Shown here one piece after another: positions 10,431-64,000 of a stretch of 64,000 bases of DNA. Within the stretch, counting starts at the first letter, position 1, and every line of letters starts with the position of its first letter. The stretch comes from Anaeroplasmataceae bacterium. GTDB lineage: Bacteria > Bacillota_I > Bacilli_A > Acholeplasmatales > Anaeroplasmataceae. Location of the stretch: assembly GCA_029067355.1 (NCBI GenBank), contig JAIEEQ010000011.1, positions 2,208 through 66,207 of the forward strand, given 5' to 3'. A model generated the notes under the pieces. The model had not been told where the DNA came from and did not search any database. It was given only the letters and a program-made list of their open reading frames with translations. A program made the translations under genes and the position numbers.

Positions 10431-10478
10431 TTTTTCTTAGTATGAGATATAGCATAGATTGAAAAAGGGTGGTGTACA

Positions 10479-11378: not shown

Positions 11379-11405
11379 GCAGAAATCTGTTTACCCTTTT
11401 TGTTT
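11373..11405 (+). terminator. Intrinsic terminator after the LysR gene
   Basis: GGGTAAGCAG-AAAT-CTGTTTACCC (10-bp stem, one G.U pair) followed by TTTTTGTTT. The stop codon lies in the stem. Confidence 0.7.
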
Positions 11406-11501
11406 GAACTAAAAGTTTATGCGATGAACAAATAGGAAATTCCTTTTTTTGATATTTCATTTTAAAATTAAGTTGTATAAAGAATTTGGAGGAAATTTAG
11501 A

Positions 11502-12389: not shown

Positions 12390-12397
12390 GGAGAAAA

Positions 12398-13051: not shown

Positions 13052-13068
13052 AAAAGGAGAAAGACAAA

Positions 13069-13626: not shown

Positions 13627-13627
13627 T

Positions 13628-14611: not shown

Positions 14612-14626
14612 AAGGAAGTGGAAGAT

Positions 14627-16462: not shown

Positions 16463-16471
16463 GAGATAAAT

Positions 16472-16846: not shown

Positions 16847-16851
16847 AGCCT

Positions 16852-17394: not shown

Positions 17395-17407
17395 AGGAGG
17401 TTCTAAA

Positions 17408-18100
17408 ATGGCAAAAAAAATAATCAAATTATTTGTTGATGCTGTTATGTTTGTTTTGTTTTTACTTCTTATGGAGGAACATTTAATATCAGATGGGATA
17501 CATGAATGGTTAGGGATTACTTTATTTTTGTTGTTTATTATTCATCTTCTATTAAACATAAAGTGGTTTTCCAAAATAGGGAAAGGAAAATATTCAGGTT
17601 ATCGAATTACCCTGCTTGTTGTAGATTTAAATCTGGCAGTAGCTATGATATGCTGTATACTCAGTTCCATTTTTGTTTCAGGCGTAGTCTTTGCAGGTCT
17701 GAATTTGCGAGGTAAGGAGTTTGGCAGAACCTTACATTTGGTATCTACAGCATGGGCATTTATACTAATGGCTATCCATTTGGGATTGCATTGGAATATG
17801 GCTGTGGGTATGACAAAGAAGTTACCACTTTCCAAATTCAAAAGAAGTATTTTAAAATGGGGGTTTCGTGTTATTGTTTTAGGCTTGTGTATCTATGGAA
17901 TTGTTATATTTATTGAACGTAGATTTTACGAGGAGTTATTCTTTATAACCTCCTTTAAAAGCTTTGATATGTCTGTGCCTACCTTTGTTTATTTCTTTCA
18001 AACCTTTGCATTAGCAGTAGTTTTTATAGGAGCAACATATTATATAAAATCAATTTGTATTTTTGTAAAGAAGGAGCAACGAAATGAAAAAACGAATTAA
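17408..18100 (+). CDS. DUF4405-like integral membrane protein with two His pairs (possible di-haem b-type)
   Basis: GAAGGAGG RBS before the ATG at 17408. His32/His46 and His110/His124 each lie 14 residues apart in predicted TM helices. Confidence 0.5.
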   Translation: MAKKIIKLFVDAVMFVLFLLLMEEHLISDGIHEWLGITLFLLFIIHLLLNIKWFSKIGKGKYSGYRITLLVVDLNLAVAMICCILSSIFVSGVVFAGLNLRGKEFGRTLHLVSTAWAFILMAIHLGLHWNMAVGMTKKLPLSKFKRSILKWGFRVIVLGLCIYGIVIFIERRFYEELFFITSFKSFDMSVPTFVYFFQTFALAVVFIGATYYIKSICIFVKKEQRNEKTN

Positions 18101-18686
18101 TATAATCACAGGACTTATTTTAATTATTTTATCAATGCTATGGGCAAGCTCTTGTACCTCTGCAATAGCTATTGATAATGAACCAGAAAAGCCAGTAACA
18201 GGAAATAGTGAAGCTTTGGTAGTATATTTTTCATGGTCTGGGAATACGCAGATTTTAGCCAATATAATAGCAGAGAAAAGAAATGCGGATTTGTTTCGTA
18301 TAGTTCCAGAGGTTCCTTATACAAATGAAGATGTATTTAGTAGAGCACAGGAAGAGCTTAACAATGGAGTAAGACCGCCACTAGCAGAGCATATTGATCA
18401 TGAAATTATGGACAGATATGAAATTATTTATATTGGATTTCCTGTATGGTGGTATGATCTTCCTATGCCTGTTTGGAGTTTTTTAGAAGAGTATGATTTT
18501 TCTGGGAAAACCATAGTACCCTTCTTTTCTCATAATGGTAGTTCCTCAGGGGCAAGCAGTATTTCAACAATTCGTAGGCTTTGCCCTAATTCAACGATAA
18601 TAGAAAGGTATTTATCTATACGTGGGTCAAATGTAAATAGTGCTGAGGCAGACGTTATACAGTGGATTAATAATTTAAATATATAG
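18084..18686 (+). CDS. Flavodoxin-like lipoprotein
   Basis: ASSC lipobox. VVYFSWSGNTQ (FMN phosphate-loop-like), GFPVWWYDLPMP and FFSHNGSSSG motifs. Confidence 0.7.
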   Translation: MKKRINIITGLILIILSMLWASSCTSAIAIDNEPEKPVTGNSEALVVYFSWSGNTQILANIIAEKRNADLFRIVPEVPYTNEDVFSRAQEELNNGVRPPLAEHIDHEIMDRYEIIYIGFPVWWYDLPMPVWSFLEEYDFSGKTIVPFFSHNGSSSGASSISTIRRLCPNSTIIERYLSIRGSNVNSAEADVIQWINNLNI

Positions 18687-18699
18687 GAGAAATAAGAAA

Positions 18700-19407
18700 A
18701 TGAATAGACCTTATACAATATGTCATATATTTTGCGCTCTTGATGGCGCAATCGTAGGTAACTATATGTACGCTCCTGAAACAACGGCAGCAAGGGAACA
18801 GTATGGAAAGTTACGCGCAACCTTTAACAGCAATGCCATTTTATATGGAACAACGACAATGCTTGATTTTTGTGATGGATATGTAGATAATTTAAAAGCA
18901 AGCCAGCCAATCAATCGTGAGGACTATATTGTGGCATCTCAAGAAAAAAATTATGTTATTGCCATAGATTCTTTAGGAAAGCTTGCCTATTCTAATAATT
19001 GCTTAGTAAGACATGGAATAAAACAGCAAATTATTGTTGTATTGTCTACAAAAGTGGAGGATGCCTATCTGCAATACCTTCAACAGCTGAAAATTTCTTA
19101 TATTTTTGCAGGAGAAACTTCTTTAGATTGTGAAATTATTATGAAAAAATTAAAAGAGAAATTTGGAATAGAACGGCTTTTAATAGCAGGTGGAGGCTAT
19201 ACAGATTGGGCATTTGCAGATGCGGGAATGATAGATGAGCTAAGCTTGGTTTTAGCTCCAGCAGCAGATGGAGAACATCAGGTTAGTGTGTTTCAAAGAA
19301 ATGAATCTTCAAGGCATTCCTCTATAACCTTTACACTAAAAGAGGTTCAGCAGGTAAATGGGAATGGAGTATGGCTACGCTATACCTTCAATAATGCCAA
19401 AAAATAA
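18700..19407 (+). CDS. RibD C-terminal / dihydrofolate-reductase-like family protein
   Basis: ALDGAI...ILYGTTT...LLIAGGG...DELSLVLAP pattern. Confidence 0.65.
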   Translation: MNRPYTICHIFCALDGAIVGNYMYAPETTAAREQYGKLRATFNSNAILYGTTTMLDFCDGYVDNLKASQPINREDYIVASQEKNYVIAIDSLGKLAYSNNCLVRHGIKQQIIVVLSTKVEDAYLQYLQQLKISYIFAGETSLDCEIIMKKLKEKFGIERLLIAGGGYTDWAFADAGMIDELSLVLAPAADGEHQVSVFQRNESSRHSSITFTLKEVQQVNGNGVWLRYTFNNAKK

Positions 19408-19421
19408 AGGGGTGAGTAGGA

Positions 19422-20060
19422 ATGAAGGTTTTATTAGTCAATGGTAGCCCCCACAAAGAGGGGTGCACTTATACAGCACTTAAAGAGATTGCAGATACTT
19501 TAGAATCCTGTGGAATTGAAACAGAAATCTTTTGGATTGGCAATCATAACTTTGGTGGATGTATCGCCTGCAAAAGTTGTGTAAAGACAGGGCAATGCGT
19601 ATACAAGGATTCAGTGAATGAGTGTCGAAAAAAAGCGTATGAGGCAGATGGATTTATATTTGGAACGCCTGTTCATTATGCGGCAGCAAGTGGTTCAATG
19701 ACCTCCTTTATGGACAGATTGTTTTATAGTGAATTATGTGGAAATGGGAATAAGGCATTTTATCTTAAGCCTACCGCAGCAGTAATGTCTGCTCGGCGTG
19801 CAGGAACAACTGCAACTTTTGATCAGATGAACAAGTATTTTACGATTCAGGAAATGCCAATCGTATCCTCTCGGTATTGGAATATGGTACATGGTACAAA
19901 TCCAGAAGAGGTTAGAAAGGATGCAGAAGGTATGCAGACAATGCGTATCTTGGCGAGAAATATGGCTTATATGCTAAAGTGTAGGGAAGTGGCTGAAAAA
20001 GCAGGAATATCTGCACCTAAACGTGAGCCAAGCGTGTTCACAAACTTTATAAGAGAGTAA
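19422..20060 (+). CDS. NADPH-dependent FMN reductase / iron-sulfur flavoprotein-like
   Basis: MKVLLVNGSPHKEGCTY N-terminus and a Cys cluster (GGCIACKSCVKTGQC) typical of this family. Confidence 0.75.
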   Translation: MKVLLVNGSPHKEGCTYTALKEIADTLESCGIETEIFWIGNHNFGGCIACKSCVKTGQCVYKDSVNECRKKAYEADGFIFGTPVHYAAASGSMTSFMDRLFYSELCGNGNKAFYLKPTAAVMSARRAGTTATFDQMNKYFTIQEMPIVSSRYWNMVHGTNPEEVRKDAEGMQTMRILARNMAYMLKCREVAEKAGISAPKREPSVFTNFIRE

Positions 20061-42089: not shown

Positions 42090-42734
42090 ATGAAGCGTAA
42101 ATGGAAAGGTGTACTTTTATTGGGAATTTTCTTACTACTTACAGCTGTAACAGGATGTAGTGATCATAAAACACCAATGAAAGGATACATATCAGATGAT
42201 GATGTTTACAAAATTGTTACTCAATTTGACGAAAACACAAGCTATACCAAATATGCTTATGAAGGAACATTAAATTATTTTGGATACGCAGATGAAATTG
42301 TACCGCAAACGATTAGCAAAAGAAATCAGGAATTTACAGATTCTTTAGACATTTATAGTGAAAAATGTGCTTCTTATTATTTGAGATTGCCTTTGCATAT
42401 CACTTTGACGAATTGGACGACAGATGCTTCTAATGGATTATCCTTGTCTACAAAGTATCAGCTTGAATCCAAGGTATATCGTCCTGCTGGACTAGATTCT
42501 GTTTACTATTATAACCGGGAGGGTGGAGGTTTTATTTTAAGAACCTTTGGTGTCAATAAGGCCCTTATTATAAAGAAGCCTAGTGATATTACCTGTCGTG
42601 CAAAATGGGATATAGAAATTGAATATGATGCGAACGGATATTTGGTTCGTGAAAGCTTTGCGACAGTAAATAAATCTGAAAAAAATAAAAGTGAGTGCTG
42701 TTATGGAGAAGCAACATATACCTATGAGAAATAA
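42090..42734 (+). CDS. Lipoprotein of unknown function
   Basis: AAGGAGG RBS and VTGC lipobox. Confidence 0.5.
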   Translation: MKRKWKGVLLLGIFLLLTAVTGCSDHKTPMKGYISDDDVYKIVTQFDENTSYTKYAYEGTLNYFGYADEIVPQTISKRNQEFTDSLDIYSEKCASYYLRLPLHITLTNWTTDASNGLSLSTKYQLESKVYRPAGLDSVYYYNREGGGFILRTFGVNKALIIKKPSDITCRAKWDIEIEYDANGYLVRESFATVNKSEKNKSECCYGEATYTYEK

Positions 42735-43449
42735 ACTAAGCTTGTTTGCTTTAGGCTTTTTAGGAGCTTTTGCTTTGACTTCCTGTGCCTTGCAAATACC
42801 AGATGGTGATATTAAGGAATTTGTTGAGCAAATTGATTTTGCTCATGCAAAAGAACAGGTTGTAACAGGGACAAGCTATATTCAAGCGATATATAGTGAA
42901 AATGACGAAGAAAAAGGTCGTATCTCTATAACAACACAAATTGATCAAAGTGATAAATATTATTTTTCTAGTACTGAAGCTAGTGGTAGCTATACAGAGG
43001 AATATAATTTTGAGCAACAACAGATTCTTTGTTATGCTGAAGAAGATACAATTCAGGCTTTTAAAAAAACGAATGAGAATTTTGAAGATGTTACATATAA
43101 CGTAGATGACCTTTATCAGCTGATATCCACTTTCTTTTATACAAAGGTAGAAGGTGGGTATCATCAGGGAGCTGTGTATTATGGTGATTATGTTGTTGCA
43201 AATTGTGCGAAATATTATCCTTGTTTTTCCTTGAATGAGAATAAGACGATTTTAACCTATGAGGTAAACACAGCTCAAAAGAATACAGAGGGTGATGAAA
43301 TTGTTACAATGCATCATTTTGAGATTGATGCTTATGGAATGATTTTGAGCCTTCATACAAAGTCTATGGTTATGGAAAAAAATATTGTAATTGATACTAC
43401 AATTGATTGCACCTATAATACACAAATTGATAAAAAAACAAAGCTATAA
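42724..43449 (+). CDS. Lipoprotein of unknown function
   Basis: The ATG at 42724 gives MRNKLSLFALGFLGAFALTSC (lipobox). Overlaps the upstream stop. Confidence 0.5.
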   Translation: MRNKLSLFALGFLGAFALTSCALQIPDGDIKEFVEQIDFAHAKEQVVTGTSYIQAIYSENDEEKGRISITTQIDQSDKYYFSSTEASGSYTEEYNFEQQQILCYAEEDTIQAFKKTNENFEDVTYNVDDLYQLISTFFYTKVEGGYHQGAVYYGDYVVANCAKYYPCFSLNENKTILTYEVNTAQKNTEGDEIVTMHHFEIDAYGMILSLHTKSMVMEKNIVIDTTIDCTYNTQIDKKTKL

Positions 43450-52174: not shown

Positions 52175-52182
52175 TTTCAATG

Positions 52183-52211
52183 GCTCTATCTATTTGGATA
52201 GAGCTATTTTT
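52183..52211 (+). terminator. Intrinsic terminator
   Basis: GCTCTATC-TATTTG-GATAGAGC followed by TATTTTT. Confidence 0.65.
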
Positions 52212-52289: not shown

Positions 52290-53108
52290 ATGATTACAAT
52301 TCAAATTGCAAAAATAAATATAGGAGTAGATTTTCTGTTTGAGGATCAATTCTATAATATAGAATCCTTTCAGGTAGATGAGAAGGAGCAATATAGAATT
52401 AAGTCCTATTCTAAGGAATTTTCTATTCCTCAAGAAGAGCCGGATCGTAAAACGGAATTTTATGATATTTATGAAACGGATACCTCAGTTATACAAGTTC
52501 AGAAAAATAAAGGAGCTATTTTAGGGGCTATTGTTTATAAGGGAAATGAAATTGATTTATATTTGAAGAACGTTACTTTTGTAACAGAGTATTTATTGAG
52601 TCAATATGCGTTACTTTATATTCTAGGTCAAAAAAGTAATGCCCTATTTATTCATGGCTCTTCCATAGTGTATCAAGGAAAAGGAATTTTATTCTGCGCA
52701 AAAAGTGGCACAGGAAAAAGTACTCAAGCTAGCTTATGGAGAACTTTTACGGATGCAGTTTCTTTAAACGACGATAAGAACATTATTGTCTTTGAAGAAA
52801 ACTCCTTAAGACTATATTCAAATCCTTGGAGTGGTAAACATCAGATTCATCAAAACATTGTAGCCCCATTAACCTGTGTTGTATTTTTATCACAGGCAAG
52901 GAAGAATAGAGTAGACCGCCTTGAGGGAATGGAAACTATGCGTCTTTTGCTTGGACAAATTGAGCCACCTAAAAAAGCATCTGTGGAAAATTGGAATACC
53001 ATGGTAGATCAGGTACTAAAGCTACCTATGTATACCTATGGATGTAATATGAAGCCTGAGGCAGTAACCATATTAAAAGAGAGATTGGAGAGAGATTTAT
53101 GCCTTTAA
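52290..53108 (+). CDS. HPr-kinase-C-terminal-like P-loop protein (putative peptide kinase)
   Basis: HGSSIVYQGKGILFCAKSGTGKST resembles the HprK catalytic-domain P-loop context. First gene of an overlapping five-gene operon. Confidence 0.6.
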   Translation: MITIQIAKINIGVDFLFEDQFYNIESFQVDEKEQYRIKSYSKEFSIPQEEPDRKTEFYDIYETDTSVIQVQKNKGAILGAIVYKGNEIDLYLKNVTFVTEYLLSQYALLYILGQKSNALFIHGSSIVYQGKGILFCAKSGTGKSTQASLWRTFTDAVSLNDDKNIIVFEENSLRLYSNPWSGKHQIHQNIVAPLTCVVFLSQARKNRVDRLEGMETMRLLLGQIEPPKKASVENWNTMVDQVLKLPMYTYGCNMKPEAVTILKERLERDLCL

Positions 53109-53365
53109 ATGAGAATTTTATTTTAAAGAACGTTGGAAAGGAATATATGATTATTCCCTTATTAGATGGAGGAGTAGATTTTAGTAAGGTTTATAATGTT
53201 TCATCTACTGGAGCCTTTATTTACGAGCAACTTAAAAAGAATAAAACAGCAGAAGAAATTGCAGATCTTATGATAAAGGAATATGAGGTTTCCTATGAGG
53301 TTGTAAAACAGGATATTGATGACTTTATTAAAGAACTGAAAAGGCGCGGAATGTATAATGATTAA
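53099..53365 (+). CDS. PqqD-family protein (RiPP recognition element)
   Basis: 88 aa. The pattern ...YMIIPL...YNVSSTGAFIYEQL...TAEEIADLMIKEYEV..E.VKQDIDDFIKELKRRG is typical of PqqD/RRE proteins. Confidence 0.7.
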   Translation: MPLNENFILKNVGKEYMIIPLLDGGVDFSKVYNVSSTGAFIYEQLKKNKTAEEIADLMIKEYEVSYEVVKQDIDDFIKELKRRGMYND

Positions 53366-53774
53366 AATAGAGGAGTTCTATCCTTTAATTTTAGAGGCGT
53401 TTGAAAAAGGACAAACCTTTACCTTTCCCATTCGGGGGACAAGTATGCAACCATTACTTCATACCAATGATTTAGTTGTAGTAAAAGCAATTGAACAAGT
53501 AAAGAGGGGAGATATTATTCTTTATAGAAGAGAAAATGGACAGTTTGTTGTTCATCGGATTTTAAAGGTAGTAGGGGATTCTTTTACATTTGTTGGAGAT
53601 CATCAGACTCAGGTAGAAAAAGGGGTAAAGCTTAACCAATGTATTGGTAAGGTCATTGCCTATAAAAAGCAGGGAAAGGAGAAGCAGTATCTCTTAAAGG
53701 GGTTTCGGTATAGGTTTTATTGTAAACTGGTACGTATGAAATTGTTTCGAGGGATTTTTGCAAAGCTATTATGA
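53358..53774 (+). CDS. S24/S26-family serine peptidase (signal-peptidase-I/LexA-like fold)
   Basis: FPIRGTSMQPLL...DLVVVK...RGDIILY pattern. Confidence 0.6.
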   Translation: MIKIEEFYPLILEAFEKGQTFTFPIRGTSMQPLLHTNDLVVVKAIEQVKRGDIILYRRENGQFVVHRILKVVGDSFTFVGDHQTQVEKGVKLNQCIGKVIAYKKQGKEKQYLLKGFRYRFYCKLVRMKLFRGIFAKLL

Positions 53775-55360
53775 AGCCAAAGAAGAAATATTGTGTAATT
53801 TTATCTATTGTTGATTTCTTTTATTCCTGTTTTTTATTGATGGTTCCTGTTCTAACAAGCAATTTGGTAAATGAAGCAGTTGCGGCATCTAAGCTTAATC
53901 ATCCAGATCTGACACTTTTGATTTGGTATGGGATTGGAGTAATAGCTGCAATTTTTATGGATATCATATTATACCTACTTGAAGGAATTCTTTATTTTAG
54001 GTTTTCCATTGCTCGTGAAAAGGAAATTAAAGAAGACTTGTTTTATTGTATATTTGAAAAAGAATATGGACAGGTTGCAAGATTTCATACCGCTCAGATA
54101 GAACAGCTTTTTACAACAGATATCAGCAATATCATTCGTAACGAACTTGAAACCATTCCTGACTTTGTTCGTCAGACGACTCGGCTTTTATTAGCCATTG
54201 GGATTGTAGTTTACATTGATTTATGGTTTTTGGCTTTGATTCTATGCTGTGGAATTTTAGGTTTCATTTTTGCAAAGCTTTATTCTAAATGGATTAGACC
54301 ACATCATCATAGAGTGTTAGAGAGTGAAGGAATGTTTAATGGATACATTTTAGAATCCATTTCTCAAATGAAATTGATTCAGGCATATGATGCAAATCAG
54401 TATTCTAATGAGCATTTTGACCATTTGAATGCATCTCAAATTGAAGCAAAGAGAAAAAGAAATCGAATTCTTTTTTTTGCCAATGGGGGCTTATTTGCCT
54501 TTAGTAATATAATCTATTTATTTGCTTTATGCTATGGAGCTTATGGAATAGCAGTACAGCTTTTAACCTATGGTAGTATGATTGCGTTAGTTCAACTACT
54601 TAGTAATATCCAAAATCCTTTAATTTCATTTTCCTCCCTATGGAATCAGTACAATTTGGCAGTAGCCTCAAAAAAAAGAATTCAGTCTGTTTATGAGCTT
54701 TCTGACAAGGTAATTGAAGAAGGGATTCCTGACTTTGATTCTATTGTATTTGATAATGTAAGCTTTGCCTATCAGGACCATTCTGTAATCAAGGATTTTT
54801 CTTTTGAAATCAAAAAGGATGAAATTGTCTTATTTCAAGGACCTTCTGGCATTGGAAAAACAACAGTTTTTATGCTTCTTATGGGATTTTTAAAGCCAGA
54901 TAAAGGAAGAATTTATATAAAGTATAAAAAGAACATTTATCCTGTTACTAGAAATTTATTTAGCTATGTTCCTCAGGAAAATCTTTTGTTTAGTGGGAGC
55001 ATTGCAGAAAATATTTATATCTTAACTGGGAAAACAATAGAGGAAGCCACATGGGCGTTAAAGCAGGCTCATATTTATGATGAGCTTATGAAGCTTCCAG
55101 AGGGGATGAATACGATTTTAAAGGAGCGGGGGAGTGGATTATCCTTAGGACAGCTCCAAAGAATCTGGATTGCGATTGCATTACTTAAGGATCGTCCCAT
55201 TCTATTATTAGATGAATTTTCCAGTGCGTTAGATAAAGAAAATGAAGAAATTATAATGAGTAATTTAGCAAACCTCCAAAAGACTATTATCTTTATTTCT
55301 CATAGAACAAAGGAAATGGAGCGTCAGCGAGTTATCCTATTTCAGGAGGTGAATTCCTAA
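53771..55360 (+). CDS. ABC exporter (fused TMD-NBD)
   Basis: Six predicted TM helices, then GPSGIGKTT, LSLGQLQR and LLLDEFSSALD motifs. Confidence 0.85.
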   Translation: MKPKKKYCVILSIVDFFYSCFLLMVPVLTSNLVNEAVAASKLNHPDLTLLIWYGIGVIAAIFMDIILYLLEGILYFRFSIAREKEIKEDLFYCIFEKEYGQVARFHTAQIEQLFTTDISNIIRNELETIPDFVRQTTRLLLAIGIVVYIDLWFLALILCCGILGFIFAKLYSKWIRPHHHRVLESEGMFNGYILESISQMKLIQAYDANQYSNEHFDHLNASQIEAKRKRNRILFFANGGLFAFSNIIYLFALCYGAYGIAVQLLTYGSMIALVQLLSNIQNPLISFSSLWNQYNLAVASKKRIQSVYELSDKVIEEGIPDFDSIVFDNVSFAYQDHSVIKDFSFEIKKDEIVLFQGPSGIGKTTVFMLLMGFLKPDKGRIYIKYKKNIYPVTRNLFSYVPQENLLFSGSIAENIYILTGKTIEEATWALKQAHIYDELMKLPEGMNTILKERGSGLSLGQLQRIWIAIALLKDRPILLLDEFSSALDKENEEIIMSNLANLQKTIIFISHRTKEMERQRVILFQEVNS

Positions 55361-56454
55361 TGAATCATCCTATTCTTACAATGCTGAAAGCATATTTTAA
55401 AAAAGAAACCTTATCTATTGATATAGAGGAAGCTCAGCGATTGATTCCTTTGGCAAAGGAGCAATCTCTACAACCCTTTCTTTATGTGGTGTATCCAATA
55501 AAGGAATTTAAGAAATACTACATTTCGGCAGCTATTATGCAGGAGGATTTTTTAAAGCTTCAAAGAGAAATAACTCTTTTGTTTAATCAGGAGGAAATTC
55601 CGCATGTTTATTTTAAAGGTAGCGTGTTAAATGAAATTTATCCTGATTCAGCTCTCCGCACAAGAGGAGATATAGATGTTTATGTAGATAAAAAGAATTT
55701 TACAAAAGCAAAAAGTATTTTCATAAAGAATGGTTTTGAAATTTTACATATTGATTCACAGCATCACATTGAATTTATTAAAAACAATTTAATGGTTGAG
55801 CTTCATTTTGCTTTATTTGACATCGTTCGGAGCTCAGATTATTTTAAGGAACCCTTTTCTTTGTGTGAAAAGGTTGAGCAAAATTTATATGCCTTTACAG
55901 AAATTAATCATTTTATTTATTGCTTGCATCATTTTCAAAATCATCTTAGATTAGGTGCAGGAATTCGTTATTTGTTAGATTTTTACTATATGCTAAAGAC
56001 GTACCATCTAGATATGGATGTCTTGCATTCTAAAATTGATCAACTGGGATATAAAAGATTATATCAAAATATTATAAATTCTCTTTATGAATTAACAGAG
56101 GAAGAATTAGATAATGTCCCTAAAGAAAATGTGGATTTCTTTTTAGAATACCTGCTTAAATCAGGGATTCATGGATTTGGACAGGAAAGCAATCGTGATA
56201 ATAAAGGGTTTGCGATTAAAGATAATAAGCTTAAAGCTATACTGCTAGGAACATTTATGACTGAAAAATCCTATCGCATTGCGAAGTATCCAACCTTAGG
56301 TAAGCATTGGTTTACTTACCCTCTTTGCTTAATTCATCGTATTTTCTATTTGCTGTTTACCCAGACGGGAAAACTATTTAAGCTTCTGTTTTTTAAGAAA
56401 AATAAAATATCAAAAGAAGAAAAGGAACTAAGAAAAAATCTAGGAATAGATTAA
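55360..56454 (+). CDS. Nucleotidyltransferase-family protein ('uncharacterised nucleotidyltransferase' type)
   Basis: RTRGDIDVYVD motif (GDxD nucleotidyltransferase) followed by a helical C-terminal region. TAATG overlap with the ABC gene. Confidence 0.6.
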   Translation: MNHPILTMLKAYFKKETLSIDIEEAQRLIPLAKEQSLQPFLYVVYPIKEFKKYYISAAIMQEDFLKLQREITLLFNQEEIPHVYFKGSVLNEIYPDSALRTRGDIDVYVDKKNFTKAKSIFIKNGFEILHIDSQHHIEFIKNNLMVELHFALFDIVRSSDYFKEPFSLCEKVEQNLYAFTEINHFIYCLHHFQNHLRLGAGIRYLLDFYYMLKTYHLDMDVLHSKIDQLGYKRLYQNIINSLYELTEEELDNVPKENVDFFLEYLLKSGIHGFGQESNRDNKGFAIKDNKLKAILLGTFMTEKSYRIAKYPTLGKHWFTYPLCLIHRIFYLLFTQTGKLFKLLFFKKNKISKEEKELRKNLGID

Positions 56455-56753
56455 TCCTTTACCAAACACCTCTTATGGAAAATAACAGGGATAAAAATTC
56501 CTGCCACCTGACAGAGGTTTTTTATTTTGTTTTAGCTTTTGACTTTACTCCTTGATTTGAATTTATTTTCTTTTTACTCATAATATGGCATATCAGAAAG
56601 AATAATTTTATAAAATTATTTTGAAGGGTGTACTAGCTGTCTGTTTTTAAGAAATCGCAAGTAGCTTTATAATGGCAAAAAATATAAAATATCTTGAAAT
56701 ATCGTGATTTTTTTCTTTTTCTTATGAAAATGAATGAAAGTGAATGCGTTTTC

Positions 56754-56782
56754 TTGACAAATGAATATGAGGGGGGTATAAT
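56754..56782 (+). promoter_or_regulatory. Consensus sigma-A promoter for the surface-protein module
   Basis: TTGACA, 17 nt, TATAAT. Confidence 0.6.
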
Positions 56783-56846
56783 TAGGTTTAAAGGAAAACG
56801 TTTACAAACGTCGTACAAATAAATTATAAAAGGAGAAAAGGAAAAT

Positions 56847-58487
56847 ATGAAAAAAATTAAGGGTTTACTATTTGCTTTTGTAGCATTATTTGCATTTACA
56901 TTAGCAATGGTAAAGGTAAGTGCTGAGGTCGTATTCTCATATGATGCGGATTCAGACACTAACACAAGCTATGGAAAGAATGCGGCAGTATCTTTAATTA
57001 CAGGCTCTGACTTGGCTACGGTAAATACTGTACGTAGCTGTAATATTCAGGCTACGGGTGCTGGATCTGCTACTTTTGATACTGAAACATCATTTACTAG
57101 AGGAATGGTTCCTGGTGGAAACTGTGGTACAGCAGCTAATGCAGCTTTAAAGATTGTTTCTAAGGTTGCAGGTGTAAAAGTTGGTTATTATTATACAATT
57201 TCAGATTCTACTTTTGCTAGCTCACCTGAAGCAGTTAATGCAGGAAATGTTATTGTTATGAATAGCGCAGGGGAAACCTTAAAGTCTTATGATAATGTTG
57301 CAGGTAAAAATAATGAAGCATATTATTTAGAATATACAATTAATAGTGCAAATGAAACTATTTTAATTGGTTCACCAAAAAGAGTAATTACATTCGCTAT
57401 TGTTCTTTCACAGGGTGAGATTGCTCAAGAGCATACAGTAACTATTATGGATGGAACAACTCAATTAAGACAACAGAAGGTTGTTGCTGGCGAATCATTG
57501 GCATTCACTCCTTCAAAATATGGATTTGATTTTGCTGGATATTATACAGATGACTCTTTAGAAACTGCTTTTGATGGAGTAGTTACTAGTGATGTTACTA
57601 TTTATGTAAAATGGACTCCTTGGACAATTGCAATTAAGAGAAATCATCTTTCTCCAGAGTTAATTACTAAGGTTGCTGAAAGCTTTACTACATTTGATGC
57701 TAGCTTAGCTTTAGAAGGCACAATCTTTACAGTTATGAAGGGTAGTCAAACAGAAGCAAGCAGTAATTCTATTAAAACTGTTGGTGGTTTAACTCCAAAA
57801 ACAGAAGAAAAGGGTATTAAAATCGTTGCTCCTGAGGCAGGAACATTAACAGTAAGAACAATTGCAGGTGGATCTTCTGCACGTAATGCAAAATTAGTAA
57901 CTTATGATGGAACTAATACTAATGAGATTTCTGTAACTTCTGGAGATCCAGTATTTACTGATGGACAAGACAAGGGAGAGCCAAGAGTATTAACATATCG
58001 TATTGAAGCAGCTGGAACATACTATTTTGGTGGTTCTAATGGTTGTAAAGTATTTGAAATGAAATTCGTTGGCGATACTGAACCACAAGTAGATTTCTAT
58101 CAACAATCTGGATATAATGCAGCTGGAACAGAATTAGTAAGATATGTAACTATTCTTAAGAATGTTTCTGAAGCAGATGTTGCTAATTTCAGTTTAGTTA
58201 TTACTGGTGAAGGCTTAGGAGAGGGCTTTGATGTAACAAGTCATTGCAAGGTTGCAACTCGTATTACTAGCAATGGTGAAACTTATAAGGCCAATATCAA
58301 TGGTGCAGAATATGCTTTTGATGGTCATGATGGTGCAATATATTTAATTTGTGTTGTGGCTGTTTCTAATGATGGTGCAGCTTTAACAGACCAATATGTC
58401 GGAAAAGAATTGACTGCTACCTTTACTTGGGGAACAGATGCACCTGTTGTAAAAACATACACTGTTTTAGGTGCACAACAACAATAA
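56847..58487 (+). CDS. Secreted protein with one Listeria-Bacteroides (Flg_new/InlB B-type) repeat and beta-rich modules
   Basis: Signal peptide with a VSA|E cleavage site. HTVTIMDG...FDFAGYYTD...VTIYVKW matches the repeat consensus. Confidence 0.7.
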   Translation: MKKIKGLLFAFVALFAFTLAMVKVSAEVVFSYDADSDTNTSYGKNAAVSLITGSDLATVNTVRSCNIQATGAGSATFDTETSFTRGMVPGGNCGTAANAALKIVSKVAGVKVGYYYTISDSTFASSPEAVNAGNVIVMNSAGETLKSYDNVAGKNNEAYYLEYTINSANETILIGSPKRVITFAIVLSQGEIAQEHTVTIMDGTTQLRQQKVVAGESLAFTPSKYGFDFAGYYTDDSLETAFDGVVTSDVTIYVKWTPWTIAIKRNHLSPELITKVAESFTTFDASLALEGTIFTVMKGSQTEASSNSIKTVGGLTPKTEEKGIKIVAPEAGTLTVRTIAGGSSARNAKLVTYDGTNTNEISVTSGDPVFTDGQDKGEPRVLTYRIEAAGTYYFGGSNGCKVFEMKFVGDTEPQVDFYQQSGYNAAGTELVRYVTILKNVSEADVANFSLVITGEGLGEGFDVTSHCKVATRITSNGETYKANINGAEYAFDGHDGAIYLICVVAVSNDGAALTDQYVGKELTATFTWGTDAPVVKTYTVLGAQQQ

Positions 58488-58503
58488 TAAGGAGATTATT
58501 AAA

Positions 58504-58644
58504 ATGAAAAAAATTTACGAAAAACCAATATTAGAAGTAGAAAATGTACAAATTGAAGATGTTTGTGCTGTTAGCGTAAATGCTGATGAAGGTGTTAGTC
58601 TTCCTACACCATCAAGCAATGTTACTCGTTGGGGTAGAAAATAG
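58504..58644 (+). CDS. 46-aa ORF, candidate leader-containing peptide: MKKIYEKPILEVENVQIEDVCAVSVNADEGVSLPTPSSNVTRWGRK
   Basis: Hand-translated; absent from the ORF track because it is under 60 aa. AAGGAG (58489-58494) lies 9 nt before the ATG. YEKPIL matches the YxxPxL leader motif. Confidence 0.5.
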   Translation: MKKIYEKPILEVENVQIEDVCAVSVNADEGVSLPTPSSNVTRWGRK

Positions 58645-58658
58645 TTAATAGAAGCTGT

Positions 58659-58676
58659 GGGGTGCTTAAGGCACCC
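58659..58676 (+). other. GC-rich stem-loop immediately after the small ORF
   Basis: GGGTGC-TTAAG-GCACCC with no strong T tail. Possible attenuator or processing site. Confidence 0.3.
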
Positions 58677-58697
58677 TACATTTCATACGGGAAGAAA

Positions 58698-58913
58698 ATG
58701 AAGAAAATTATAGGATTTGCTTTATTTTTAATTATGGTATTATGCTCTTGTAGTCATGCATCAGTTGATTCTTCGTTAGATGAGGGAGATGAATCGGAGA
58801 TTGTACAACCAGATGCTAAAGATGAAGAGAATAAGAAAGATGATGACAAGCAAGACGAGGGTACTGAAGACAAAGTTTATGATGATGATGTTGAGTGGGG
58901 GCCTTTGTCATAA
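58698..58913 (+). CDS. Small, highly acidic lipoprotein (71 aa)
   Basis: MKKIIGFALFLIMVLCSC lipobox. The mature part is dominated by D/E. Confidence 0.5.
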   Translation: MKKIIGFALFLIMVLCSCSHASVDSSLDEGDESEIVQPDAKDEENKKDDDKQDEGTEDKVYDDDVEWGPLS

Positions 58914-58931: not shown

Positions 58932-61900
58932 ATGAAACTTAAAAAGATAATTATTGGACTTTTTATGATTTCAGCTGTAATTGGTTTGGCAGCTTGTAAA
59001 ACAGATGATGATCCAAACCAAAATATTCCACCAGAAGAAGATGTTTTAAAGTACACAGTTACTTTTGATACAGATGGTGGTAGCGCAATTGCAGTTCAAA
59101 ATGTAGAAAGAGGACAAACAATCAGCAATCCAGATACTCCTGTAAAAGCAGGTTATGAATTTAAGGGATGGTATAAGGATAAAGCTTGCAATTATATATG
59201 GGATTTTGAAGAAGATATTGTTACAGGAAATGTAACCTTATATGCGAAATGGGAAGCAAAGGTAATATATACAGTTATCTTTGATTCTAAAGAGGGTAGC
59301 CCAGTTGATTCACAGCAGGTGAAGTATAACGAGAAGGCACAAAGACCAATCAGTCCAACAAGAGAGGGCTATATCTTTGCAGGCTGGTTTACAGAGAGTG
59401 CATGTATTTATGAATTTGATTTTGTGAATACAGAAATAACAAAGGATATCACCTTATATGCGAAATGGGTAGAAAGATCAACAGATCCAACCAAGGTAAA
59501 GGTACTCTTTAACTCAAAAGGTGGTAGTTTGGTACCTGATTTAACAGATGTAGAGATTGGTTCAAAGATTAGCAAGCCAGCAGATCCAGTAAGAGAAGGG
59601 TATACCTTTGTTGGCTGGTTTAAGGATGAGGATGGTCCTTTAACAGGTAAGTTTAACTTTGAAGAAGAAGTGATTACTGAGGGTATCACATTATTTGCAA
59701 GATGGGATATCAATATGTATACCATAACTTTTGACTCAAATAATGGTAGCAGTGTAGAATCTCAATCTGTTGGATATAAGCATAAGGCACAAAGACCAGT
59801 AAGCCCAACAAGAGAAGGCTATATTTTTGCAGGTTGGTTTACAGAATCCTCATTTATTCATGAATTTGACTTTGTGAATACAGAAATAACAAATAGTATT
59901 ACCTTATATGCAAAATGGGTAGAAAGATCAACAGATCCAACCAAGGTAAAGGTACTCTTTAACTCAAAAGGTGGTAGTTTAGTACCTGATTTAACAGATG
60001 TAGAGATTGGTTCAAAGATTAGTAAGCCAACAGATCCAGTAAGAGAAGGATATACCTTCCTTGGCTGGTTTAAGGATGAGGATGGTCCTTTAACAGGTAA
60101 GTTTAACTTTGAAGAAGAAGTGATTACTGAAGGAATTACTTTATATGCTAGATGGGAAATCAATATATATACAGTAACCTTTAATTCAAATAATGGTAGC
60201 AGTGTAGAATCACAAAAAGTACAATATGATCATGTAGCCTCTAGACCAGTAAGTCCAACAAGAGAAGGCTATATTTTTGCAGGCTGGTTTACAGAGGCTG
60301 CTGGTATTCATGAATTTGACTTTGTGAATACAAAAATTACAGGAAATATTACCTTATATGCAAAATGGACACCAAATTCATCTACTTCTGATGTGTTCAC
60401 AGTAACCTTTAATTCAAAAGATGGTAGTTATGTTCCAGCTATTGAAAATATTTTACCAGGTTCAAAGATTCAAAGACCAACGGATCCAATAAGAGAGGGA
60501 TATAGATTCTTAGGCTGGTTTAAGGATGAAAATGGTCCATTGAGAGATGAATTTAATTTTGATGAAGAAGTAATTACTGAAAATATAATCTTATATGCTA
60601 GATGGGAAGTTTCTGAATATAAAGTTACATTCAGTGGAACAACTTTAGCTCCACAGATTGTACCTGTTGGAGGAAAGATTACAAAGCCTAGCCCTGATCC
60701 AGTTAAAGCAAATCATATTTTTGTTGGCTGGTATGAGGATGCAGCATTTACAAGAATTTGGGATTTTGATACAGTATTAACAAGCTCTATAACACTTTAT
60801 GCAAAGTTTGAAGAAAAGCTTCCAACAGATCAGGATAATACAATTAAATTCCCATTCAATTCTTTCCATACTACGGCACAGGCAAATTTAGATTCTAGTA
60901 CAGGTAAGACAAATAAAGACTTAACCACAGGTCAATTCACTGTTGATGCTGGAGTTAAAACGGAAGCAGCGATTTTAAATACGCAGGGTAAGGGAGTAAC
61001 ATTTACAGTAAATGGTACAATTAGTAATGGATTTGTATTGACTGGTACAGGTGCCTCTACTGGTAAGGTAGTTACTGTAACGCTATACCAAGGAACTAAT
61101 ATTTTAGGCACATGGGAGATTGGCTATCAGGCTACTAAAACAATTACAGTAGATGGTTTAGATGCTGGCTCTTATAAAATTACAACTTCTGGCTCTGTTA
61201 GAATTACAAACTTTACATTATATGAATACAATGTTCCAGTAGAGCTAGTTGTTCATTTCGATTCAAAGAATGGAACTCGTGTTCCAGATGTTGTTGTAAA
61301 TAAGTGGGGTAAGCTAACTGCACCTACTGCTCCAACTAAAGATGGTTATATCTTTGCTGGATGGTATATAGATGATAGCCTTCAAACAGCATTTGATTTC
61401 AATACTAAGATTTTAGAAGAAATGACCTTATATGCAAAATGGGACGAAAAACCTGTGGATCCTAATTTGACGATTTATACAATATCCTATAATCCACATG
61501 GTGGAAATGATATTCCAGATAAGCAGGTTAATGAAGGCAACAAGGTTGCTGCACCTGAAAATCCAGTAAGAGAAGGATATACTTTTGTTGGCTGGTATGA
61601 GGAAGATAGCTATATTAACCTTCATGATTTCACCAAGCCTGTAAATCAAAACTATACTTTACATGCAAGATGGGTTGAAAAGCCATTAGTTATTAGCTTT
61701 GTAGGAGCAGATATTGAAGACATGCAAGTTTATCGTAATAATACGATTGAAGAACCTGCTACTCCACAAAGACCAAATTATATTTTTGAAGGCTGGTATG
61801 AAGATGAGGCCTTTACAAAGAGATTTGATTTCTCTATTCCTTTGACAAAGGATACGACCATTTATGTTAGATGGGAAAAGGATCCTGATGCATCTGATTA

Positions 61901-64000
61901 TATTGAGGGTGGTCAAGGAACAGTAGGCCAAAAGGGTACCGTAGAAATTACAGAGGCAATGGGCTTATCTGAGGCTGCTTATATTACCTTTAAGAAGGTA
62001 ACAGGGGCTACTGGATATTCCATTACATTAAAGAATTCAAGCAACGCAATTCGTGTTCTTGATGATAATAGCGTTTATATTCGTGAAGTAAATGGTGGCA
62101 TGCGTGCTGATATCTTTGGCGTTGTTCCAGGGACTTATGAGGCAACCATTCTTCCATTGAATACTTCAAGTGCAAATCCATCAACTGCTACATTTAATGT
62201 TGGTGCGTATGATCGTTCTGGCTATGCACACTTTAACTATACAGATGGTGTTGGTGCGTATAATGATGATGGATCATTAAAGAAAAATGCAATTGTACTT
62301 TATGTAACAGATGCAAATAAAAATACTGTTTCCATTACACATAAGGGTATTACGGTTACTGGTATTGGTAATATCTTAAACTCTGTTGGTGAAGATGTTG
62401 GTGGCGGAGTTACTGCAAAGGGTGGAAAAGCAAATACAAATCAAGGAATCTTGAAGCTTCTTGCTGAGGATAATATTCCTCTTGTAGTAAGATTTATTGG
62501 TTGTGTATCTAATACAGGCTTATATAAGCAAGGTACCTTTGCTGCTTCAACTGCTCCAAAGGTTGAGGGCTTAACAATTTATAACTCTTTAGACAATGGT
62601 GGATCTGTGGGCGACAATGGACATATGGCTCGTATGAAGTCTGGAAAGAACATTACTCTTGAAGGTGTTGGAGAGGATGCAATTGTTGATGGCTGGGGCT
62701 TCCATTTTATGGCTGAAAGCTCAGCTCCAGATCTTGGAAAGAATTTTGAAGTAAGAAATCTAACCTTTATTAATACACCTGAGGATGCCGTTGGTATGGA
62801 GGGTGTACAGTCTACGGCTAATACTAGTGCTATAATTACAGCAAGTGTTGAAAGATGCTGGGTTCATAATTGTGAATTCTATTGTCCAAGCATTTCTAGC
62901 CCTGCTGAATCTGATAAGGCTCAGGGTGATGGTTCTGTGGACTTCAAGAGAGGTCAGTACTTTACATGTAGCTATAACTACTATGAGGGATGCCATAAGA
63001 CAAATCTTGTTGGCTCAGCTGATAGTTCATTACAATTTAATTTAACATATCATCATAATTATTATAAGAATTGTGAGTCAAGAGGACCACTTTCTCGTAA
63101 TGCAAATATTCATATGTATAATAATGTATTTGAGGGACAATCCTCTTATGCAATGGATGCAAGAGCAACTGCCTTCATCTTCTCTGAATACAATTTATTC
63201 TATTGCTGTAAATCACCTCAAACAAATGCAAGTGGTGGTGTTATTAAGAGTTATAACGATTGCTTCTCTAGTGTAATCAATGATCAGTTAGGTGTTATTG
63301 TTACAGATAAGACACAAAACGTATCTAACTCTTGTCAATATATTGCAGGTGGCATTGATTATTCTAAGTTTGAAACAAATCCAAACCAGTCTTACATTCC
63401 TTCTGGGGATTATGTTCTTCAAACTAATATGACTGACGTTAGAAAAGCATGTGCAGCGAGATGTGGTGTTGTAAAAGATCATGGTGTTGCAATGCAGGAT
63501 GTACCTATGTCTCAAATATCATATCTTCCTAGTGGTGTTACTCCTACAAAGGTTACAAGCTATCCAACAACCTTAACTCCAGGTAAGATTAGCAAGGTAG
63601 TTTATGCATTTACGTTAGATCGTACCACAGAAGTAACAGTTTCCTATACAGGTGAAGGTGTTTTAGTAAATGAGGCTGGAGAAAAATTCATTGATGGTAA
63701 TGGAACAGCTATCTTAAAGCCAGGAACCTATATGTGTCAATCTGTTAACTTTAACCCAGATAAGGGTAGTGGTTTATCCTTCAAGGATTTAACAATCAAC
63801 TCAATAGAAATTAAAGAACATAATTCAGAAGAATTAAATCAACAGATTATTGCTGAATTTGAAGCTAAGGTTGCAAAGATTCCAGCAGAAATTGTTTATA
63901 CAGATTCTTGCTTAGCATCAATCACTTCAGCAAGAGAGGCTTATAATCAATTAAGTCCTGAATTAAAGACAAGAGTAACTGCATCTTACACTAAGATTCA
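58932..64000 (+). CDS. Giant surface lipoprotein, 3' end outside window: 11 Listeria-Bacteroides repeats, beta-sandwich modules and a PL1-like pectate lyase domain
   Basis: Hand-translated and open from the ATG at 58932 wherever I checked (58932-59460 and 62703-63180 read codon by codon). LAAC lipobox. Repeated (Y/F)T(V/I)TF(D/N)S..G....REGY.F.GW......F.F.....(I/V)TLYA(K/R)W units. Lyase motifs GDGSVDFKRG, HKTNLVGSADS and LTYHHNYYKNCESRGPLSRNANIHMYNN. Confidence 0.85.
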   Translation, partial: MKLKKIIIGLFMISAVIGLAACKTDDDPNQNIPPEEDVLKYTVTFDTDGGSAIAVQNVERGQTISNPDTPVKAGYEFKGWYKDKACNYIWDFEEDIVTGNVTLYAKWEAKVIYTVIFDSKEGSPVDSQQVKYNEKAQRPISPTREGYIFAGWFTESACIYEFDFVNTEITKDITLYAKWVERSTDPTKVKVLFNSKGGSLVPDLTDVEIGSKISKPADPVREGYTFVGWFKDEDGPLTGKFNFEEEVITEGITLFARWDINMYTITFDSNNGSSVESQSVGYKHKAQRPVSPTREGYIFAGWFTESSFIHEFDFVNTEITNSITLYAKWVERSTDPTKVKVLFNSKGGSLVPDLTDVEIGSKISKPTDPVREGYTFLGWFKDEDGPLTGKFNFEEEVITEGITLYARWEINIYTVTFNSNNGSSVESQKVQYDHVASRPVSPTREGYIFAGWFTEAAGIHEFDFVNTKITGNITLYAKWTPNSSTSDVFTVTFNSKDGSYVPAIENILPGSKIQRPTDPIREGYRFLGWFKDENGPLRDEFNFDEEVITENIILYARWEVSEYKVTFSGTTLAPQIVPVGGKITKPSPDPVKANHIFVGWYEDAAFTRIWDFDTVLTSSITLYAKFEEKLPTDQDNTIKFPFNSFHTTAQANLDSSTGKTNKDLTTGQFTVDAGVKTEAAILNTQGKGVTFTVNGTISNGFVLTGTGASTGKVVTVTLYQGTNILGTWEIGYQATKTITVDGLDAGSYKITTSGSVRITNFTLYEYNVPVELVVHFDSKNGTRVPDVVVNKWGKLTAPTAPTKDGYIFAGWYIDDSLQTAFDFNTKILEEMTLYAKWDEKPVDPNLTIYTISYNPHGGNDIPDKQVNEGNKVAAPENPVREGYTFVGWYEEDSYINLHDFTKPVNQNYTLHARWVEKPLVISFVGADIEDMQVYRNNTIEEPATPQRPNYIFEGWYEDEAFTKRFDFSIPLTKDTTIYVRWEKDPDASDYIEGGQGTVGQKGTVEITEAMGLSEAAYITFKKVTGATGYSITLKNSSNAIRVLDDNSVYIREVNGGMRADIFGVVPGTYEATILPLNTSSANPSTATFNVGAYDRSGYAHFNYTDGVGAYNDDGSLKKNAIVLYVTDANKNTVSITHKGITVTGIGNILNSVGEDVGGGVTAKGGKANTNQGILKLLAEDNIPLVVRFIGCVSNTGLYKQGTFAASTAPKVEGLTIYNSLDNGGSVGDNGHMARMKSGKNITLEGVGEDAIVDGWGFHFMAESSAPDLGKNFEVRNLTFINTPEDAVGMEGVQSTANTSAIITASVERCWVHNCEFYCPSISSPAESDKAQGDGSVDFKRGQYFTCSYNYYEGCHKTNLVGSADSSLQFNLTYHHNYYKNCESRGPLSRNANIHMYNNVFEGQSSYAMDARATAFIFSEYNLFYCCKSPQTNASGGVIKSYNDCFSSVINDQLGVIVTDKTQNVSNSCQYIAGGIDYSKFETNPNQSYIPSGDYVLQTNMTDVRKACAARCGVVKDHGVAMQDVPMSQISYLPSGVTPTKVTSYPTTLTPGKISKVVYAFTLDRTTEVTVSYTGEGVLVNEAGEKFIDGNGTAILKPGTYMCQSVNFNPDKGSGLSFKDLTINSIEIKEHNSEELNQQIIAEFEAKVAKIPAEIVYTDSCLASITSAREAYNQLSPELKTRVTASYTKI
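59268..60617 (+). repeat. Three tandem 450-bp coding repeat units (each two Flg_new repeats) inside the giant ORF
   Basis: AAATGGGTAGAAAGATCAACAGATCC recurs at 59463 and 59913, exactly 450 bp apart. 59463-59720 versus 59913-60170 differ at about 14 positions by eye. Confidence 0.85.

Follow-up and report, generated by a model that had tools for sequence, protein, structure and literature searches.

What does a five-gene operon make that carries the accessory enzymes of a modified peptide but no enzyme to cyclise it, and on which peptide does it act? This question is raised by positions 52290-56454 of a 64,000-nucleotide stretch of DNA (referred to as the window; contig JAIEEQ010000011.1, assembly GCA_029067355.1) from a metagenome-assembled genome of the family Anaeroplasmataceae. 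In the initial annotation, made from the sequence alone, the operon was read as a distinct, uncharacterised pathway for a ribosomally synthesised and post-translationally modified peptide (RiPP), related to the paeninodin-type lasso peptide clusters and yielding an exported linear peptide, phosphorylated and/or nucleotidylated. By analogy with the lpp genes of Paenibacillus alginolyticus, we consider it about 85% probable that the operon is an lpp-type RiPP cluster (lppK-B-S-D-N) for a linear phosphorylated peptide, and that its substrate is a 46-residue peptide encoded at 58504-58644. The locus is a divergent gut-bacterial member of the family of linear polyphosphorylated peptides (LPPs), not a new kind of system. 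We assign it to this family because it shares the gene set and gene order, because its proteins are homologous to the Lpp proteins and match the same NCBIfam models, because lasso cyclase and B2 protease are absent, and because a precursor family with a YxxP box and a candidate serine accompanies enzymes that are cytoplasmic.

LPPs were described in May 2026 (Popov et al., Nat Commun 2026;17:6633, PMC13381572). Expression of lppA-K-B-S-D-N of P. alginolyticus DSM5050 in B. subtilis yielded the precursor and a leader-cleaved core with one to four phosphates on core Ser3. Deletion of lppK abolished phosphorylation and impaired cleavage, the unphosphorylated precursor being poorly cleaved, while without lppS there was no cleavage after Thr-1 and the deletion of lppN caused no detectable change. 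LppS, which is inactivated by S29A, H68A and D93A, requires LppB for cleavage; in LppB, D70 hydrogen-bonds the leader tyrosine and F74 divides the pockets. The precursors span 35-200 residues and carry the motif YxxPxVLxHQxIxFETxxS. The survey found 80 of 9173 Bacilli genomes and called LPPs restricted to Bacillota; about one third of the Bacilli clusters containing a signal peptidase I (SpI) protein lie beside lasso genes and about two thirds are without lasso enzymes. By analogy with paeninodin-type lasso peptides, these RiPPs are termed phosphorylated and glycosylated peptides in the paper, which did not identify the final product and speculated on a role in capsule or biofilm (PMC13381572). 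The earlier expectation of a paeninodin-related pathway without cyclase and B2 protease, with an S26-type leader peptidase and an exported linear phosphorylated product, matches what was found for the homologous lpp genes, while the words "uncharacterised" and "no assigned product" have been out of date since that publication.

In order to compare the operon with the characterised system, we took the sequences of LppS, LppB, LppA and PbaB1 from Supplementary Data 1 of PMC13381572 and, as a reference locus, the lpp region of P. frigoriresistens (L081), reached through a protein 97% identical to LppS. This locus comprises lppA, the kinase gene K (PF27840, ScmC), B (PqqD), S, D and N (PF14907), and its lpp genes adjoin a canonical lasso cluster with Asn_synthase, a PF07475 Hpr_kinase_C kinase, PqqD, Transglut_core3 and NTP_transf_5. 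The window operon has the same five families in the same K-B-S-D-N order as the P. alginolyticus genes: a kinase of the PF27840 type, a RiPP recognition element (RRE) with the tyrosine-binding aspartate, an SpI-like peptidase whose serine and histidine are in register, an MsbA-like exporter and an NTP_transf_5 protein, together with a YxxP leader and no macrolactam cyclase. The published work annotated LppK mainly via TIGR04249, LppS via TIGR02228 and LppD via TIGR02203 (PMC13381572), and these are the best NCBIfam models for open reading frames (ORFs) 1, 3 and 4 of the window. The five ORFs overlap by 10, 8, 4 and 1 nt, exactly as first annotated, so that the LppS-type peptidase gene lies directly beside that of the tyrosine-type RRE (8-nt overlap), in the company of the LppK-type kinase, the exporter and the nucleotidyltransferase-fold protein. 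A hydropathy check found no transmembrane segment in ORF1, ORF2, ORF3 or ORF5.

The kinase required a fold search, since a profile-to-PDB sequence search with ORF1 reached HPr kinase (HPrK) at E 0.15 only. The AlphaFold (AF2) model, which has a predicted local distance difference test score (pLDDT) of 92.4, returned HPr kinase/phosphorylase (HPrK/P) structures on top in Foldseek against the PDB (1knx at 6e-7, 1jb1 and 1kkm at about 4e-5), with a TM-score on the target of about 0.5-0.56; phosphoenolpyruvate carboxykinases (PEPCK) rank after these. The motif region HGSSIVYQGKGILFCAKSGTGKST covers residues 122-145, and in an alignment of 25 homologues H122, G132, GTGKST at 140-145, N160, D162, P179 and G182 are invariant. 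The resemblance of this P-loop to HPrK/P had been noted from the letters alone, and the invariant residues and the model bear it out. ORF1 found no match in our local Pfam copy, and its best NCBIfam match is ScmC (TIGR04249) at 1.4e-5, with 24.6 bits against a cut-off of 125. The precomputed family PF27840 (ScmC) is assigned to homologues of ORF1, as it is to LppK, whereas the lasso kinase of the reference locus belongs to PF07475. Consistently, ORF1 aligns with the LppK orthologue of that locus in BLASTP (27% over 133 residues, E 1e-8) and in hhalign (97.4%, E 1.4e-11), and with the lasso kinase of the same locus in BLASTP in the P-loop region only (hhalign 94.5%, E 7.8e-8). The label "HPr-rel-A system", mentioned in the initial annotation for such gene sets, does not fit: HprK_rel_A (TIGR04352) gives ORF1 16.6 bits against an equivalog cut-off of 200. 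A protein identical to ORF1 is recorded from a metagenome-assembled genome of the Anaeroplasmataceae.

ORF2 is, judged by its residues, a discrete PqqD-type RRE of the tyrosine-recognising kind that marks LPP clusters. The Pfam match to PqqD (PF05402, 3.4e-14) agrees with the first reading of this gene, while ScmD (TIGR04248) matches weakly (21 bits against a cut-off of 100). BLASTP places it closer to LppB (31%, E 3e-9) than to the lasso protein PbaB1 (21%, E 3e-6), and D72 and F76 align with the tyrosine-binding D70 and with F74 of LppB; across the clade, D72 is kept in 32 of 34 members and F76 in 26. A sequence search of the PDB likewise puts LppB (9x8z_B, 2.6e-3) ahead of PbaB1 (0.25), with TbiB1 as the best match at 1.2e-4.

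ORF3 carries GTSMQP at residues 27-32 and GD at 51-52 and 80-81, and the peptidase signature seen in these letters is backed by Pfam (Peptidase_S24, PF00717, 5.9e-10; S26, PF10502, 1.9e-6) as well as by its best NCBIfam model, sigpep_I_arch (TIGR02228, 1.7e-11). With LppS it shares 28% identity over 109 residues (E 2e-14), S29 corresponding to S29, H66 to H68 and E87 to D93. S29, H66, R67, G80, D81 and E87 are invariant in 44 of 44 clade members; where LppS has its catalytic Asp93, the clade thus has a glutamate throughout, and the aspartate of the GD box (D81) is invariant as well. Since ORF3 matches SipW and archaeal signal peptidase I models, and since many related loci, like the window, have genes for secreted proteins on the flanks of the cassette, one might read it as a dedicated SipW-like signal peptidase in an operon whose task is the maturation and export not of a small peptide but of the secreted or surface proteins encoded nearby. 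We regard this as very improbable. The SipW model NF046067 gives 30.6 bits against a cut-off of 190, and the Kyte-Doolittle mean stays below 1.6 in every 19-residue segment of ORF3, so that the membrane anchor of SipW is lacking. Translational coupling also ties ORF3 to an RRE and a kinase, the secreted proteins next to it come from unrelated families and bear Sec signal peptides of the ordinary kind, a conserved small ORF with a YxxP box (below) suits the RRE, and the homologue LppS performs an RRE-dependent cleavage of a peptide leader (PMC13381572). The S26 fold and Ser-His chemistry are common to ORF3, the SipW/archaeal-ER-type signal peptidases I and SodX, the maturation protease of nickel superoxide dismutase; SodX shows that a soluble S26 enzyme can take off an N-terminal propeptide. 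ORF3, by its homology to LppS, would be expected to need the RRE for substrate presentation.

The last two genes of the operon turned out to be what they had been taken for. ORF4 matches ABC_membrane (6.8e-28) and ABC_tran (2.1e-24) in Pfam and TIGR02203 in NCBIfam (2e-50), lacks a C39 peptidase domain and is 29% identical to LppD over 461 residues (E 1e-52). ORF5 belongs to NTP_transf_5 (PF14907, 3.6e-33); its motif GDIDVYV lies at residues 103-109, with D104 and D106 invariant. PF14907 also comprises LppN and the nucleotidyltransferase of the lasso cluster in the reference locus. The identity of ORF5 to LppN is about 22% and not significant in a pairwise comparison (E 1.1), and its match to the lasso-cluster protein reaches E 2e-6.

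The kinship with lasso clusters raises the possibility that the operon is an ordinary paeninodin-type cluster whose cyclase and B2 protease lie beyond the window. Paeninodin/pseudomycoidin-type clusters share with it an HPr-kinase-fold kinase, a PqqD-type B1 protein, an ABC exporter, an NTP_transf_5 protein and a [Y/W]xxPx[L/V] leader box; the best PDB sequence match of ORF2 is a lasso B1 protein, and the third of SpI-containing Bacilli clusters that neighbour lasso genes, the reference locus among them, gives a precedent. They differ in having an Asn-synthetase-like cyclase, a transglutaminase-like B2 protease and a PF07475 kinase, in place of which the window has a PF27840 kinase and a serine SpI-like peptidase, with a linear product expected. 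We found no Asn_synthase, Transglut_core3 or Radical_SAM domain in the 47 window proteins scanned with Pfam (8 + 39), and no SGGxDS PP-loop motif in any frame of the window, that is, in neither the 52 kb upstream nor the 7.5 kb downstream. The other ten window ORFs of at least 110 residues, plain ABC ATPase and ECF/TruA genes among them, stood outside the profile scan, those on the + strand being read by eye. In 80 related loci (below), searched for the cyclase and not for B2, no PP-loop cyclase-like ORF lies within 10 kb, while in the reference locus, which served as a control, both the cyclase and B2 are present and were recognised. Together with the LppK type of the kinase and a leader tyrosine where paeninodin leaders have tryptophan, this makes a hidden lasso cluster hardly credible, and the absence of cyclase and B2 protease from the 64 kb, as stated in the initial annotation, stands. 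The SynChlorMet cassette (ScmC/ScmD and the radical SAM enzymes ScmE/ScmF; TIGR04248-04251) has a similar pairing of HPrK-like and PqqD-like proteins; we rejected membership in it, as ORF1 and ORF2 score far below the equivalog cut-offs of TIGR04249 and TIGR04248 and no radical SAM enzyme is found among the window proteins scanned. A literature search on the EDVITTS leader block, PF27840 and PF14907/NTP_transf_5 returned nothing relevant; neither kinases nor S24 peptidases come up in RRE-Finder (PMC7470986), and a survey of rumen lasso peptides (PMC7533575) treats such genes as lasso accessories only.

A substrate was found by comparing related loci. When each GTDB species was represented by a single genome, the scan yielded at least 591 stretches with relatives of ORF1, which may include lasso-type kinases; the counts that follow refer to the best 80 of these. 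Most of the 80 stem from Clostridia, Erysipelotrichales and Acholeplasmatales of gut and rumen, with Kandleria vitulina DSM 20405, Anaerostipes butyraticus JCM 17466 (L037) and a Prevotella strain as cultured carriers. The full set of kinase, RRE, peptidase, ABC exporter and nucleotidyltransferase occurs in 13 loci, the set without the nucleotidyltransferase in 14, and kinase, RRE and peptidase in 15. Clustering of the small intergenic ORFs produced one family, M-x-K-Y-E-x-P-x-[ML]-E-V-V-E-F-E-x-E-D-V-I-T-T-S with a short tail of variable sequence behind it, and a hidden Markov model (HMM) built from the cassette-linked members, without iteration, finds 41 peptides, which are spread over the window and 29 of the 80 loci. 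Nearly all are on the cassette strand, mostly less than 1 kb upstream of the kinase gene. The conserved block ends in serine in 31 of the 41, as the published motif ends in the phosphorylated serine, and the tails are variable, rich in Gly, Asp and Glu and about 20 residues long on average. The neighbourhood comparison that had been proposed as a check on the peptide reading did reveal a conserved small ORF.

In the six frames of the window the leader HMM has a single match, 58471-58644 (E 3.5e-10), with an ATG at 58504 and a Shine-Dalgarno sequence AGGAG at 58490-58494, 9 nt ahead of it. Only 17 bp separate its start from the stop codon of the preceding gene, which encodes a secreted protein of 546 residues, and the two genes are probably co-transcribed; genome L001 keeps the same order of cassette, homologue of the 546-residue protein and peptide orthologue. 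The initial annotation had correctly deduced a peptide pathway and missed this precursor gene, which lies outside the operon, behind the next gene. Six precursor-like peptides matched no model in Pfam or NCBIfam, and a PDB sequence search with the window peptide gave no match, the LppA leader included. The peptide carries the relaxed RRE box [Y/W]xxPx[L/V/I/F/A] but not the published precursor motif or the search motif Px9Fx[T/A]: it reads P-x6-V-x-I, its Clostridial relatives P-x6-F-x-T. The serine that ends the conserved block, Ser24, is the predicted phospho-acceptor. Aligning the F-E-T motif would place the cleavage after I17, and anchoring on Ser24 nearer residues 21-23. Both sites are guesses, because the motif spacing differs and Ser3 of LppA aligns with Val20.

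A number of observations weigh against the assignment to the LPP family. Identity between the window proteins and the Lpp proteins is about 27-31% only, ORF5 is barely alignable with LppN and not detectably closer to it than to the lasso-cluster paralogue, and ORF3 is nearer to the Ruminococcus protein SCH01704.1 (42%, E 1e-23), from cluster 9, unstudied, of the published sequence similarity network, than to LppS. The window peptide does not fit Px9Fx[T/A], the clade leader HMM does not detect LppA (E 0.3-1), and in a MAFFT alignment the phosphorylated Ser3 of LppA falls on a valine. The precursor gene lies in a separate transcription unit 2 kb downstream of the cassette, and 51 of the 80 related loci have no precursor recognisable by the leader HMM; listing the small ORFs in these 51 yielded noise only. 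Further differences from the lpp genes are the acid residue of the peptidase (Glu87 for Asp93), a leader that lacks F-x-T and in which the stretch from the YxxP box to the position aligned with the cleavage motif is 3 residues shorter, and an acidic to neutral core where that of lpp is rich in Gly, Asn and Lys. The lpp precursor gene lies directly upstream of lppK, whereas that of the window stands behind a secreted-protein gene; unlike in the published clade, neither a lasso cluster nor a capsular polysaccharide locus adjoins the cassette, and the host belongs to the Mollicutes, whereas the published survey covered Bacilli.

Gene content and order, homology, the conservation of catalytic residues, and a precursor linked to the cassette are observed directly, while we infer the chemical steps, their sites and the biological role, the steps by analogy with the lpp system. 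In the proposed sequence of events, the RRE (ORF2) would bind the YxxPxL box of the leader, and ORF1 would add one or more phosphates to the serine just past the leader, predicted to be Ser24. The RRE would then present the leader-core junction to the cytoplasmic SpI-like ORF3 with its Ser29/His66 pair, which would cut between residues 17 and 23, and ORF4 would export the product of about 22-29 residues. ORF5 may decorate the phosphate with a further group; nucleotidylation, as first suggested, is unsupported, given that deleting the NTP-transferase gene of the reference system changed nothing detectable (PMC13381572). The same machinery could serve to release a short unmodified or transiently phosphorylated peptide, for example a signalling pheromone, the phosphorylation only licensing the cleavage. 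The poor cleavage of the unphosphorylated precursor and the missing final product in the reference system speak for this, as do the short, variable Gly/Asp/Glu-rich tails of the clade and the tandem precursors and LytTR-type regulators or sensor kinases near some loci. Leader-cleaved cores with one to four phosphates were nevertheless detected in the heterologous host (PMC13381572), and neither a receptor nor a regulator gene adjoins the window cassette; we therefore consider such a product improbable compared with the linear phosphorylated peptide of an lpp-type cluster.

Within the clade, the cassettes and their precursors vary in several ways. Some loci have tandem precursor copies: at 2215-3223 of L029, six genes with near-identical leaders and short acidic tails (GELIEDGDED, GIIDGDED) precede a kinase-peptidase-nucleotidyltransferase set, with genes for a LytTR-type regulator and a sensor kinase adjoining. 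In Kandleria vitulina DSM 20405 (L028, 6303-6677), a 117-residue protein has the same leader (…KPYIEIVRFDAEDVIATSG…), so the substrates of the clade would appear to span from about 30 to more than 100 residues. About five related loci add a radical SAM/SPASM maturase; in some (L048 10594-12159, the region 10580-12159 of L050, and L075; best NCBIfam matches Clo7bot, TIGR04463 and PapB-like) it stands next to peptides that combine the same leader with cysteine-containing cores, which suggests that different tailoring enzymes reuse one platform of leader, RRE and peptidase. A kinase-peptidase-RRE-ABC set is present in a cultured isolate of the Bacteroidota, and so beyond the Bacillota to which the paper confines LPPs: Prevotella aff. 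ruminicola Tc2-24 (L054, 9647-12867 of a 425-kb contig), in which the leader HMM found no precursor.

A placement that the LPP paper does not mention (PMC13381572) recurs in these loci: in about 15 of the 29 loci with a peptide, as well as in the window itself, the precursor gene starts 2-63 bp behind the stop of a gene whose product mostly bears a signal peptide and is often very large (the loci are L001, L002, L008, L019, L020, L024, L025, L033, L039, L042, L056, L062, L070, L071 and L080). By BLAST, these upstream proteins share no common family: there are two groups of six, unrelated to each other, and a number of singletons, none of which the 546-residue protein of the window matches. The pairing is therefore one of position and is not tied to one family. 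A common C-terminal beta-sandwich is possible, by eye only. From this, one may picture the clade of gut and rumen anaerobes (Acholeplasmatales/Anaeroplasmataceae, Clostridia, Erysipelotrichales and one Prevotella) as a separate and much larger LPP-like subfamily with its own leader, YxxPx[ML]EVVEFExEDVITTS, as a platform; more than half of the loci with a peptide would co-transcribe the precursor gene with that of a secreted or cell-surface protein, and some members add radical SAM maturases. The exported acidic phosphopeptide would then work with surface or matrix proteins, by modifying, anchoring or regulating them, rather than act as a free antimicrobial. We put this forward tentatively and would not yet call it likely.

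The features of the locus are compiled in Table 1. The terminator of the upstream gene marks the 5' boundary of the operon, and 392 bp separate ORF5 from the next gene (56455-56846), in agreement with the bracketing first described. Within this gap, the consensus terminator scan made no + strand call at the long hairpin; the perfect promoter further on, whose function is surmised from its consensus match, probably drives both the secreted-protein gene and the precursor gene. The hairpin behind the precursor may be an attenuator that limits read-through into the lipoprotein and giant surface-protein genes that follow, or it may stabilise the precursor transcript.

Table 1. Coordinates of the operon, the candidate precursor gene and associated signals in the window.
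Feature	Position	Strand	Description
Intrinsic terminator of upstream DUF308 membrane-protein gene	52179-52208	+	13-pair stem, 4-nt loop, T-run TTTTCTTT
ORF1	52290-53108	+	272 aa; lppK-like kinase, HPr-kinase/PEPCK-fold P-loop protein of ScmC (PF27840) type
ORF2	53099-53365	+	88 aa; lppB-like discrete RiPP recognition element, PqqD family
ORF3	53358-53774	+	138 aa; lppS-like leader peptidase, soluble homologue of signal peptidase I of the archaeal/SipW (Ser-His) type
ORF4	53771-55360	+	529 aa; lppD-like MsbA-type ABC exporter, half transporter with transmembrane and nucleotide-binding domains (TMD-NBD)
ORF5	55360-56454	+	364 aa; lppN-like NTP_transf_5 nucleotidyltransferase-fold protein
Possible operon terminator	56468-56528	+	long hairpin, then U6AU4; minimum free energy (MFE) -14.1 kcal/mol, z only -0.7
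Sigma-70-type promoter	56754-56782	+	TTGACA-17-TATAAT, 12/12 consensus matches
Secreted 546-aa protein	56847-58487	+	signal peptide/hydrophobic N-terminus; weak Flg_new match
lppA-like precursor	58504-58644	+	46 aa, MKKIYEKPILEVENVQIEDVCAVSVNADEGVSLPTPSSNVTRWGRK; YxxPxL RRE-binding box Y5, P8, L10
Strong hairpin right after precursor stop	58651-58684	+	GC-rich, no U-run; MFE -20.9 kcal/mol, z -4.9, 0/200 shuffles as stable

Beyond the precursor, a 72-residue acidic lipoprotein-like ORF (58695-58913) stands ahead of a surface-protein gene that runs off the end of the window (58932-64000) and encodes more than 1689 residues with 11 Listeria-Bacteroides (Flg_new) repeats and a pectate-lyase domain. 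The neighbouring genes are all on the + strand, those upstream comprising truA, the genes of an energy-coupling factor (ECF) transporter, and genes for starch and maltodextrin. In base composition the block resembles the rest of the window (about 33% GC, with GC skew positive throughout), and we set aside a defence or phage origin because of the chromosomal housekeeping context (ecfA/ecfT/truA upstream). Elsewhere in the window, the block at 9321-20060 looks like an extracytoplasmic redox module: it contains three aldo/keto reductases (one with a 4Fe-4S dicluster tail), a LysR regulator, two cyclophilin-like proteins, a flavin reductase, an FMN reductase, a DUF4405 membrane protein and four Flavodoxin_4 proteins, three of them lipoprotein-like and one fused to BspA-type leucine-rich repeats with two flavodoxin domains. 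Seven ORFs of 138-258 residues (2203-4250, 7422-7838, 8695-9246 and 42090-43449) have no Pfam match at E 1e-5, and several of them resemble membrane proteins or lipoproteins by eye.

The LPP machinery, defined in 2026 from Bacilli, is now seen in gut bacteria of a wall-less lineage, the Anaeroplasmataceae being Mollicutes and placed in the phylum Mycoplasmatota in the NCBI taxonomy. Its breadth may be considerable, with kinase relatives in at least 591 species-representative genomes, mostly of gut and rumen Firmicutes, a count that may include lasso-type kinases. As the precursors of this clade escape the published search motif, mining based on that motif will miss them. Finally, the recurrent placement of the precursor behind secreted-protein genes offers a testable lead on the function of LPPs, which complements the speculation about capsule and biofilm.

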